64,000 bases of DNA, taken from an uncultured virus (IMG/VR IMGVR_UViG_3300025853_007458) (taxonomy: Duplodnaviria; Heunggongvirae; Uroviricota; Caudoviricetes). Below the pieces are notes generated by a model that saw only the letters and a list, made by a program, of their open reading frames with translations, made no database searches and was not told the origin of the DNA. The position numbers were made by a program, and so were the translations under genes. The stretch is from the IMG/VR virus record IMGVR_UViG_3300025853_007458. One strand, 5' to 3'. Positions within the stretch are counted from its first letter, which is position 1. Every line of letters starts with the position of its first letter. Shown one piece after another: positions 35,230-39,504 of this stretch.

Positions 35230-35559
35230 ATGACAAATTTTAAAGATAATAGTGGTTTAGAAGAATACAAACCAAAAATGTCACAAGAAGAACGTGATGA
35301 AAAAATGAAAAAGTTTTTAGCAAAGGGTGGAAAAATTGAAAAATTAAAACCAGGATACCCTATTAGTGTAGGTAGTTTAGATAAAAGTAAAAAACCAAGA
35401 TACACAAAAGAAGATGTTTCTAAAGGACTTGCTGTTGGTAAAACAGCTAGACCTAATTATGATACATATAAAAAAGGATCATACCACGACTTTGATGTTG
35501 GTGGTGATAACCCACCAGTATGGGAAAAACAACCAAAAAATGAGATGGGAGGTAAATAG
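35230..35559 (+). CDS. Hypothetical basic protein
   Basis: 109 aa, AAGGA RBS, FLAKGGKIEKL motif. Confidence 0.6.
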   Translation: MTNFKDNSGLEEYKPKMSQEERDEKMKKFLAKGGKIEKLKPGYPISVGSLDKSKKPRYTKEDVSKGLAVGKTARPNYDTYKKGSYHDFDVGGDNPPVWEKQPKNEMGGK

Positions 35560-35562
35560 ATA

Positions 35563-35805
35563 ATGGCCATTACAGTAGAAGTAAGAGGTGGCAATTTAGA
35601 GAAGGCTATGCGTGTTCTTAAAAAGAAAGTACAAAAGGCAGGGATTGTTAAAGATTTAAGATCAAAACAATATTTTTCTAAACCATCAGAAATAAAACGT
35701 GAAAAAGCAAAAGAACGTTCTAAAACAATCAGAAAAGCTCAAAAAGCAAATGATGAGATGTTAGGTTACAAGTACGTAAAAGGAGTTAAAGTTAAGAAAA
35801 TTTAA
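35563..35805 (+). CDS. rpsU: Ribosomal protein bS21
   Basis: VEVRGGNLEKAMRVLKKK...YFSKPSEIKREK pattern; GGAGG RBS. Confidence 0.88.
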   Translation: MAITVEVRGGNLEKAMRVLKKKVQKAGIVKDLRSKQYFSKPSEIKREKAKERSKTIRKAQKANDEMLGYKYVKGVKVKKI

Positions 35806-35986: not shown

Positions 35987-36045
35987 GACAATGCCTTATA
36001 GGGTTGTCAGAAAATTAACTTTGCTTAACAATAGGAGGTTACATG
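35987..36045 (+). promoter_or_regulatory. ROSE-like RNA thermometer in the hsp20 leader
   Basis: 5' hairpin GACAA..CCT/AGG..TTGTC, then AACTTTGCT pairing with AGGAGGTT (SD) with a bulged G; UUGCU is the ROSE signature. Confidence 0.62.
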
Positions 36046-36498
36046 ACCAATAAAGCACTATCAATTTTCAATCAATTAAGACCACTAACTGTAGGATTTG
36101 ACGATACGTTCAGACATTTTGAATCAATGTTTGACCATCAATTAGATCATATATCAACTACAGCTTTTCCACACTATAATATAGTTAAGATGGATAAGAA
36201 TAAGTACGATATTCAAATCGCACTTGCTGGTTATAACAAAAAAGATATAGACATAAGCCTTGAGGAAGGTGTACTATCTGTTGAGTCTAAAAAAGTAGAT
36301 GACAAGAAAACAGAAAAGGTAGACTCTGGAGGTGAAATCTTACATAAAGGTATCGCTAAAAGATACTTTAAGAAGTCTTTTACAATCGCTGATGACGTTA
36401 AGGTTACAGGCGCTGAATTAAAGGACGGACTATTAAGAGTGTCTTTAGAAAGAGTTGTTCCAGAACATAAAAAACCTAGAACTATCTCAATCAAATAA
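36043..36498 (+). CDS. hsp20: Small heat-shock protein Hsp20 (IbpA-like)
   Basis: FPHYNI, IALAGY, LHKGIAKRYF and AELKDGLL motifs; C-terminal I-S-I. Confidence 0.95.
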   Translation: MTNKALSIFNQLRPLTVGFDDTFRHFESMFDHQLDHISTTAFPHYNIVKMDKNKYDIQIALAGYNKKDIDISLEEGVLSVESKKVDDKKTEKVDSGGEILHKGIAKRYFKKSFTIADDVKVTGAELKDGLLRVSLERVVPEHKKPRTISIK

Positions 36499-36505
36499 AA
36501 AACCA

Positions 36506-36543
36506 ATACGTGCTATGTTTTAAACGCATAGCACGTATAAATA
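36506..36543 (+). promoter_or_regulatory. 12-bp perfect inverted repeat overlapping a late promoter
   Basis: ATACGTGCTATG (36506-17) / CATAGCACGTAT (36527-38); TATAAATA at 36536-36543. Confidence 0.6.
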
Positions 36544-36548
36544 CTTAA

Positions 36549-36600
36549 TATCGTTCAACTCAAATGAGTCGGAAGTAGGCACGTGCCGAAGGAACGCACC
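36549..36600 (+). ncRNA. glnA-type glutamine riboswitch
   Basis: P1 CGTTC/GAACG, P2 ACTC-AAAT-GAGT, junction CGGAAGTA, P3 GGCA/TGCC, E-loop AGTA/GAA; matches the glnA RNA architecture. Confidence 0.82.
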
Positions 36601-36624
36601 TAACTAAAAAAAAAAGGAGGGTGT

Positions 36625-36780
36625 ATGAATTTCAAGTGGGATCTAACAAAGTTTATTAAAGAGGCAAGAGCAAAAAAATCTGCAACTGCTATTTTAAGAA
36701 AAAGATCAAAAGATTCAATTGCTAGACCAAAAGCAACTAAAAATATCACATCAAAAGATTCTCGTTTACAAGGTATATAG
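36625..36780 (+). CDS. 51-aa basic peptide downstream of the glutamine riboswitch, not in the ORF track
   Basis: AAGGAGG RBS, ATG at 36625, MNFKWDLTKFIKEARAKKSATAILRKRSKDSIARPKATKNITSKDSRLQGI, TAG at 36778-36780. Confidence 0.75.
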   Translation: MNFKWDLTKFIKEARAKKSATAILRKRSKDSIARPKATKNITSKDSRLQGI

Positions 36781-36784
36781 GATA

Positions 36785-36813
36785 TTGACAAATTGACGTG
36801 AATAGTATATAAT
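36785..36813 (+). promoter_or_regulatory. Consensus sigma70-type promoter
   Basis: TTGACA-17 nt-TATAAT. Confidence 0.75.
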
Positions 36814-36838: not shown

Positions 36839-37363
36839 ATGAAAAAAGGTGATAGAGTACCAGAAGTAAATTTTAGAGTAAGATCGCTAGGCGAATGGAC
36901 AGATACAAATACGAATACGTATTTTAAAGATAAGAGAGTTATACTGTTTTCATTACCAGGCGCTTTTACTCCTACATGTTCAACTCAACAATTACCAGGA
37001 TACGAAAAATTATATAGTGTGTTTAAACAACACAATATTGATGACATATATTGTATGTCAGTAAATGATTCGTTTGTTATGAATGCCTGGGCACAAAATC
37101 AAAAACTAGAAAACGTTAAAGTAATACCTGATGGTAATGGTGACTTTACAGACGCAATGGATATGCTTGTAGAGAAAACTGTTATAGGTTTTGGTATGAG
37201 ATCATGGAGATATGCTATGATTGTAAACAATGGTGTAATAGAAGAAATGTTTGTAGAACCTGGTAAAGGTAACAATACATCAGGAGACCCTTATGAGGAA
37301 TCTACTCCTGAAAAAGTTTTAAAATATCTACAAGCAAGTAGGCTTGACTCAAACGCAATTTAG
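36839..37363 (+). CDS. Peroxiredoxin (Prx5/redoxin family)
   Basis: LPGAFTPTCS, SVNDSFVMNAW, PDGNGDFT and RSWRYAM motifs. Confidence 0.93.
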   Translation: MKKGDRVPEVNFRVRSLGEWTDTNTNTYFKDKRVILFSLPGAFTPTCSTQQLPGYEKLYSVFKQHNIDDIYCMSVNDSFVMNAWAQNQKLENVKVIPDGNGDFTDAMDMLVEKTVIGFGMRSWRYAMIVNNGVIEEMFVEPGKGNNTSGDPYEESTPEKVLKYLQASRLDSNAI

Positions 37364-39266: not shown

Positions 39267-39422
39267 ATGGCAAGAAGAACATTTTTTAGAACTTTGATAG
39301 TGAAGTTAAGAATGTGGTATGCTGATATAAGAGGTCATCACGGTAAGAGATGGGATTATGAACCAGGCGATTACTATATGGGTTCTCATAAAGGTCATAA
39401 GAAACACGAAAGAAAACACTAA
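39267..39422 (+). CDS. 51-aa basic His-rich peptide, not in the ORF track
   Basis: GAGG RBS, MARRTFFRTLIVKLRMWYADIRGHHGKRWDYEPGDYYMGSHKGHKKHERKH, TAA at 39420-39422. Confidence 0.6.
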   Translation: MARRTFFRTLIVKLRMWYADIRGHHGKRWDYEPGDYYMGSHKGHKKHERKH

Positions 39423-39428
39423 CAATGG

Positions 39429-39504
39429 GCCGCTTTAGCTCAGTTGGTAGAGCAACTGATTTGTAATCAGTAGGTCCGCGGTTCAAATCCGTGAAGCGGC
39501 ACCA
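39429..39504 (+). tRNA. tRNA-Thr(UGU)
   Basis: 76-nt cloverleaf: GCCGCTT/AAGCGGC acceptor, ACTGA-TTTGTAA-TCAGT anticodon arm, GGTTCAAATCC T arm, encoded CCA. Confidence 0.96.

Follow-up and report, generated by a model that had tools for sequence, protein, structure and literature searches.

The 51-aa peptide gene at 36625-36780 of the window (the whole 64,000-nucleotide stretch analysed here, itself part of a 133,364-base virus record with T4-like replication genes) may be the single gene of a nitrogen-gated cassette. We propose, with a probability of roughly 0.4, that a glutamine riboswitch turns this gene ON, that a box over its promoter serves as a predicted repressor site, and that its product stands in for a host protein which damps glutamine synthetase (GS). 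The narrower claim that a real glutamine-ON switch acts on a real peptide is, judged from the sequence, highly probable. Every element described in the first-pass annotation was found where that annotation had put it. The locus comprises the following features.

36043..36498, + strand: Hsp20 gene, the upstream neighbour, given for context and outside control by the switch (Pfam PF00011, phrog_432)
36504..36540, no strand assigned: tandem GCA-N9-TGC-type box, a predicted operator overlapping the promoter (host-site matrix, host promoter comparison)
36506..36538, + strand: 13-bp RNA hairpin formed by the bases of the box (-18.4 kcal/mol)
36536..36543, + strand: T4-type late promoter motif TATAAATA (motif as given in the methods of PMC9004378)
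36550..36600, + strand: type-1 glutamine (glnA) riboswitch aptamer (RF01739, 64.1 bits; covariation)
36596..36624, + strand: expression platform (anti-SD strand 36596-36601 with 36619-36624; SD AAGGAGG at 36614-36620)
36625..36780, + strand: gene for a 51-aa basic peptide, of a family here named MNFKWDL after its start (ORF, homologues)
36785..36813, + strand: sigma-70-type promoter for the downstream peroxiredoxin gene, which bounds the cassette (12/12 match)
36839..37363, + strand: peroxiredoxin gene, the downstream neighbour, given for context (PF08534, phrog_2281)

On both model score and covariation, the RNA preceding the peptide gene is a genuine type-1 glutamine riboswitch. The first-pass annotation had read a glnA-type aptamer here and suggested a search with the Rfam model, and RF01739 indeed matches at full length (positions 1-53), scoring 64.1 bits (E 7.3e-12) where the cut-off is 35; this copy, at 36550-36600, is the only one in the 133,364-base record. 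The pocket bases are unchanged (C1=36552, G22=36571, G23=36572, C58=36595, G59=36596, C60=36597), as numbered by eye against the crystal construct printed in the available part of PMC5393176. Across 18 aligned leaders (13 from the peptide family, four from other phages and one from a host, the 5' end being misaligned in two rows), pairing holds in 94.7% of cells and seven pairs have changed on both sides, a level attained by 0 of 500 shuffles in a control that is inflated by the relatedness of the sequences. P1, P2, P3 and the anti-SD helix all show compensatory changes. RF01739 was also seen in 20 of 46 genomes of the alphaproteobacterial order of G001 (L330-L348), often as tandem pairs, and some copies in that order precede a 35-aa peptide.

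Immediately beyond the aptamer, GCACCU (36596-36601) pairs with GGGUGU (36619-36624) with probabilities of 0.91-1.0 in the ligand-free ensemble. The resulting anti-SD helix, in which the earlier reading had recognised a possible translational switch, covers two SD bases and the spacer up to the AUG and supports that reading by its conservation: it spans at least 5 bp in 37 of 39 unique family leaders of two unrelated sequence types, a count from which four Mosig-type leaders were left out because the script had picked an out-of-frame ATG. The helix is 100% paired in the 18 aligned leaders; three of its pairs are invariant, and in two leaders another pair has changed on both sides. Its observed energy was reached by 0 of 300 partner swaps, a control likewise inflated by relatedness. 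Glutamine binding is described as inserting G23 to pair with C60, and this pairing is postulated to melt a helix that blocks the RBS (PMC11477058, PMC6212724, in the available text). As C60 and G59 form the outer pairs of the anti-SD helix, the bound state competes with that helix, and ON is therefore the predicted direction. Following the published structures, bound glutamine would pair C60 with G23 and G59 with C1, and the occupied aptamer would take two of the six pairs from the anti-SD helix and free the RBS. In L031, modelled 'binding' lowered the opening energy from 6.0 to 3.1 kcal/mol, a fall that is partly a product of the imposed constraints. The base pairing suggests that the element is likely a translational ON switch.

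Transcription of this leader is tentatively ascribed to a T4-type late promoter, for which both motif and placement fit, on the evidence of contigs and with a predicted start site. The count of TATAAATA is by itself not above chance in the AT-rich window (11 observed against 13.9 expected); the late promoter of the first-pass annotation is supported instead by strand bias (11 of 11 on +), by placement in the genome, where 25 sites lie mostly just 5' of structural-region genes by inspection, and by the family leaders, since all 39 unique ones (39 of 39) have TAAATA no more than 22 nt from the aptamer. From the motif-to-start distance of T4, transcription is predicted to start near 36550. The 17 RNA runs that contain the stretch were not counted as evidence of expression: three of the four inspected had flat depth over intergenic DNA on long contigs, so that DNA is likely present in them.

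Overlapping this promoter is a tandem box, absent from the earlier annotation, with sites at 36504-36518 and 36526-36540 that stand 22 bp apart and an inner core at 36514-36530. By a matrix built from 20 host sites, 36504-36540 ranks first among tandem positions in the phage genome, and its single sites are imperfect (ranks 41 and 216). A simulated genome is expected to yield 0.33 such tandem scores, or about 1.5e-4 in any one 60-bp window; 10 of the 40 simulated had one somewhere, so that the weight lies in the position of the box. Host genes adjoining glnA carry two GCATA-N5-TATGC-like sites, also 22 bp apart, just before the start codon, and perfect outer boxes precede gltD in two genomes, with a third perfect site inside a gene. 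Sites above the shuffled 95th percentile precede 13 of 21 riboswitch leaders of host-type genes, 11 of 53 of the 51-aa gene and 1 of 90 others. The inner core, TATGY-N7-RCATA, has 11 exact matches in three SAR11-like genomes against 7 for a backwards control; all six intergenic matches in the three hosts are at glnA or amt promoters, matches that are not independent, the motif having been defined after phage and host leaders were compared and the glnA and amt promoters seen. The phage genome has four matches to the core against 1 for the control, of which just 36514-36530 is clear of coding sequence by the ORF list. An exact copy of the core stands in 8 of the 47 leaders with a riboswitch, in 3 of 3 leaderless ones and in 0 of 28 from podoviruses.

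A factor that might bind this box is suggested by published work. GCAn9TGC is given as a putative NtrX/NtrC-family site in the available text of PMC7240162, where Rhodobacter NtrX regulates the cell envelope and not nitrogen; that of PMC3870248 puts NtrX forward as the nitrogen regulator of SAR11 and records a rise of amtB and glnA when nitrogen is limiting. By analogy with these two sources, the box is predicted to be an operator of a host NtrC/NtrX-family regulator, and the odds slightly favour its being a functional one; the literature yielded no SAR11 binding data for an NtrC/NtrX site. The spacers of the box are complementary in 7 of 12 unique alleles, and the RNA hairpin is also kept, with covariation. 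This hairpin (36506-36538), likewise absent from the earlier annotation, has no U-tail on the + strand and was not called by the terminator scan; it is likely the end of the Hsp20 transcript. A second box-like site, at G000:C1:27051-27090, immediately precedes a copy of TATAAATA upstream of a 313-aa gene, and may mark a second regulated late promoter.

The product itself is a small protein under purifying selection, with dN/dS of 0.29 over 90 unique coding sequences and 0.19-0.33 by class (pairs with pS under 0.6). Its 51 residues include 15 K+R and 4 D+E (pI 11.2), in keeping with the Lys/Arg-rich ORF described previously. Homologues were found in 184 clusters by single-sequence search and in 872 of 1030 candidates by profile, and a full HMMER scan gave 46 representatives, of which the 39 inspected all belonged to the peptide's family, intact or broken. 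Nearly every member is 51 residues long, and the core LRKRS-ARP is invariant. AlphaFold predicts a helix at 3-30 followed by an extended conserved tail (pLDDT 85, pTM 0.44), and the sequence contains no hydrophobic segment. In L088, L232 and L308, alleles of 46-47 aa that bear the riboswitch keep the helix and have the conserved C-terminal tail replaced, and in one podovirus-like contig the 51-aa gene occurs as two divergent copies (L161:233-385 and 977-1129).

Searches of Pfam, PHROG, NCBIfam and the PDB gave no significant match, weak matches to SpoIISB (E 0.058) and phrog_639 (E 0.025) were dismissed, and none of the Atlas neighbours has a name. The sole Foldseek viral match (51 aa, 47% identity) is, we infer, probably the Mosig homologue itself. 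A likeness to the cyanobacterial inactivating factor IF17, raised in the first-pass annotation, did not survive any profile test: the DUF4278 profile matched, up to E 1, neither the peptide nor one of the 48 members aligned, the peptide did not match DUF4278/IF17 in NCBIfam, and membership of that family was rejected. A cellular origin of the gene was likewise rejected, as it occurs on four contigs among 185,579 genomes with phage-like neighbours; in 251 SAR11-like genomes it was not found, save for one E 0.009 match with an internal stop.

The host of the phage is likely SAR11. The peptide is carried by four cultured Pelagibacter phages (HTVC023P, HTVC103P, HTVC104P and Mosig), and these carriers, together with a clamp loader 79.9% identical to that of Mosig, point to such a host, in line with the earlier view that it is not a cyanobacterium. 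A related phage, however, infects OM43 (PMC9004378, available text), and 16 RNA runs containing the stretch carry a freshwater label. The phage's bS21 was uninformative as a host marker (best match 46%). Its gene (window 35563-35805) lies just upstream of Hsp20, as does a 109-aa ORF (window 35230-35559) with a sub-threshold match to the SutA RNAP-binding domain (E 0.00066). On the far side of the cassette, a second 51-aa ORF (window 39267-39422), His/Arg-rich and with no family match, is conserved in 22 related loci and is followed directly 3' by tRNA-Thr(TGT) (window 39429-39504). Hsp20 lies directly 5' in 12 of the 36 unique loci with riboswitch and peptide for which at least 400 nt upstream are available.

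A link between the cassette and host GS is offered by another small gene family, of 56-70 aa, which is present in 92 of 151 SAR11-like genomes. It stands tail-to-tail with class-I glnA at 11 of the best-scoring 30 loci and at 3 of 4 loci picked by way of glnA; the other 19 of the best 30 do not adjoin glnA, and a tail-to-tail arrangement is weak evidence. G553 (unpublished) accounts for a single one of the 92 genomes and a single one of the 11 loci, and the conclusions do not depend on it. From its neighbourhood, the glnA-adjacent gene is a candidate host regulator of GS. In G436, a 56-aa basic gene (L376:2902-3072, - strand) is tail-to-tail with class-I glnA and has a tandem box before its start codon; further host loci of the glnA-adjacent gene are L374, L375 and L398-L408. 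G436 matches a SAR11 16S probe, and its small gene matches Pelagibacter phages, which suggests that its order is SAR11-like.

Phages carry this host-type gene too. It matches 28 phage records, 26 of them from Pelagibacter phages and none of them one of the four cultured 51-aa carriers, and includes an unannotated copy in the cultured pelagimyophage HTVC008M (KC465899.1:18232-18357, - strand). The family is missing from the window's phage genome, and five carriers of the 51-aa peptide gave no match to it in a search that had no positive control. In one phage contig (L063), a host-type gene occupies the slot of Hsp20, box, promoter, riboswitch and peroxiredoxin in which the window has the 51-aa gene: the leader is nearly unchanged up to the ATG, the switchover falls at the start codon, and the sigma-70-type promoter is likewise present 3' of the swapped peptide. 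Such a swap was seen in 1 of 13 informative loci. Homology between the two families was considered for their N-terminal resemblance and rejected (hhalign probability 0.2-1.7% in three comparisons; shuffle p 0.13-0.61), and the 51-aa peptide lacks the profile similarity, including the NGT-x-x-Y hairpin motif, of the host family. As the two are not detectably homologous, we claim replacement and not descent.

A chromosomal copy of the riboswitch turned up in 1 of 151 SAR11-like genomes when only 35 candidates in each were scored, and in 0 of 5 when all candidates were. In G555, a chromosomal glnA-type riboswitch with the window's platform (L372:1265-1552, - strand) precedes a 70-aa host-type peptide among metabolic neighbours, and the family of this 70-aa protein is common 3' of phage riboswitches. 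Another SAR11-like subgroup (L380-L389, L391, L392) has a conserved two-hairpin leader, about 100 nt before the host-type small gene, consisting of ACCAT..ATGGT, then ACCGAT..ATCGGT, then TAAAAG; it had no Rfam match in the four loci scanned and is possibly an undescribed riboswitch. Upstream of nine host loci, a scan gave no Rfam match. SAR11_0746-0748 do not appear in the supplements of PMC3870248; as the glnA tag is missing there too, that comparison is uninformative.

Together, these elements would operate as follows. When nitrogen is short, a host NtrC-family factor, with NtrX as the candidate, would repress the late promoter, and the riboswitch would add a second layer, a logic akin to that of NtcA plus riboswitch on cyanobacterial gifB. 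Late in infection the peptide would, from its context, bind the host class-I GS or a regulator of it, so that ATP and glutamate might be spared once glutamine suffices. GS as the target is a tentative assignment from context, held at somewhat less than even odds; indirect backing for it comes from the operator box, and from the exchange, in one slot, with a gene that adjoins glnA in hosts. A wider and more doubtful reading is that SAR11, which is without PII, controls GS through a small inactivating protein encoded near glnA under an NtrX-type box, and that many pelagiphages have captured this control. These phages would then carry either a copy of the host protein or an unrelated 51-aa replacement, and T4-like phages would gate the gene by host operator and riboswitch, a clean deletion giving a constitutive leaderless gene.

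The invariant LRKRS-ARP core and strongly basic character of the peptide might equally suit another partner, and its resemblance to no known inactivating factor leaves room for one. It could bind a different nitrogen or translation target in the host, such as GOGAT, the Amt transporter, NtrX, the ribosome or RNA polymerase, a reading that we hold possible if rather unlikely. The box marks gltD and amt as well as glnA, and the neighbours in the window include bS21 and the weak SutA-like match; however, PDB, Atlas, HMMER and Foldseek comparisons gave no positive sequence or structure link to such targets, and the sole host-side context found is glnA.

Where the gene sits in different phages bears on a further proposal, that a real glutamine ON switch controls a peptide acting on lysis timing or virion maturation, so tying release to the nitrogen status of the host. 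Podoviral copies have small membrane-type or lysis-type ORFs around them and peptidase M15 nearby, and in myoviruses the gene has a late promoter; glutamine-timed lysis is also speculated upon in the available text of PMC9004378. Myoviral copies, however, are located within replication-module and tRNA regions, the peptide lacks a hydrophobic segment, and the replacement in L063 is from a host chromosomal family often adjoining glnA, such that we consider a role in lysis improbable. A same-slot comparison of HTVC027P with HTVC023P held in part: the upstream short ORF was common to 8 of 12 podoviral loci tested, and the downstream gene matched none of the podoviral loci tested.

The riboswitch is not a constant companion of the gene. 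Of the 78 best loci whose leader is complete, 21 carry the riboswitch (17 recognised by pattern, 3 by Rfam and 1 by sharing L192's leader), 15 run from TATAAATA to the ATG in 8 bases, and 42, podovirus-like, have neither. The first-pass annotation had asked for homologues with a conserved upstream riboswitch, and the outcome was divided: the family is conserved (872 clusters), whereas the riboswitch is absent from 57 of the 78 loci and is therefore not essential to the peptide gene. Among cultured phages, Mosig has RF01739 (50 bits) directly before Mosig_00116, its 47%-identical homologue, and RF01739 was not found upstream of the peptide gene in HTVC023P or HTVC104P. Near-leaderless alleles occupy the window-type slot without riboswitch or SD (L133-L150, with 15 full loci, and L349-L365); elsewhere in the phage genome, too, there are sites with an ATG 5 bases 3' of TATAAATA. 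In a midpoint-rooted tree of 153 columns, the nine unique alleles of this kind group on a single branch (92/86) within riboswitch-bearing lineages, as sister to the allele group of the window, which fits a derived and clean loss of the riboswitch.

These distributions might suggest that the peptide is a plain late gene, whose riboswitch and box came with a captured host leader and are dispensable or weakly functional. The sister clade keeps selection on its peptide after clean loss (dN/dS 0.20), and the riboswitch leader also precedes many unrelated peptides: its exact glnA-type pattern occurs in an estimated 460 or so IMG/VR stretches, and in most of the 120 inspected small ORFs of many families follow it. 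Against this stand the compensatory changes noted above in the aptamer stems and in the anti-SD helix, the maintenance of that helix by two independent platform sequences, and the 47 distinct alleles that retain the riboswitch across divergent lineages; we regard a plain late gene as quite improbable. That the aptamer variant senses another ligand, or works as an OFF switch, would suit a P1 that is unformed in the ligand-free nearest-neighbour ensemble (pair probability 0.03-0.09), but every mapped pocket base is unchanged and C60 is unable to pair with G23 and the SD-side strand at once, leaving this idea very improbable indeed.

The nitrogen-gated cassette, as we read it, is a testable handle on nitrogen regulation in SAR11, which are among the most abundant marine bacteria. 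They are described as without PII-type control, and the regulation of their nitrogen assimilation as an open question, in the available text of PMC3870248. The cassette points to a candidate operator, to a candidate host regulator beside glnA and to a phage replacement for it. The switch-plus-peptide unit is present in the cultured pair of Mosig and HTCC1062, the host-type gene occurs in more than 20 cultured pelagiphages, and natural alleles with and without the switch provide a ready comparison. A largely open-access literature search for a SAR11 inactivating factor, a Pelagibacter NtrX regulon or a glutamine-tied pelagiphage small protein returned nothing relevant.

Glutamine riboswitches in phages are themselves not new, which makes the novelty lower than the first-pass annotation implied, being reported in Melnitz, Mosig and contigs in the available text of PMC9004378 and in S-CREM1 in that of PMC9964418; for pelagimyophages, the available text of PMC7029224 found none. 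From sequence comparison, what appears new is the tandem GCA-N9-TGC box over the promoter, with an inner core recurring at SAR11-like glnA and amt promoters, the SAR11-like 56-70-aa gene that fills the peptide slot in one phage contig, and the sister alleles left nearly leaderless after apparent loss of the riboswitch.

Among known systems, the leader of Synechocystis gifB, encoding IF17 (Klahn et al., 2018, PMC6212724, available text), shares the RF01739 class, the sequestering of the RBS by the C60-equivalent, a small basic product and, in the predicted repressor box over the promoter, a counterpart to NtcA on gifB. Unlike gifB, the present gene is phage-encoded, follows a T4-type late promoter in a phage of a likely non-cyanobacterial host, has a product without DUF4278 and a GCA-N9-TGC-type box, and would act on a target that is predicted here. 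Melnitz, Mosig and pelagimyophage contigs (Buchholz et al., 2022, PMC9004378) provide the precedent for RF01739 in T4-like phages of streamlined heterotrophs; in the available text of that study the Melnitz switch is linked with ssrA and lysis, and there is no mention of a small ORF, an SD-sequestering platform or an operator. For the box, the outer consensus fits the NtrC/NtrX site GCAn9TGC (Lemmer et al., 2020, PMC7240162), a site that is itself putative in the available text and whose Rhodobacter targets are envelope genes. The cyanobacterial inactivating factors IF7 and IF17 serve as a working analogy for the peptide, which differs from them in having no Pfam, NCBIfam or PDB sequence match, and is like them small, basic and predicted to be made when nitrogen is plentiful.
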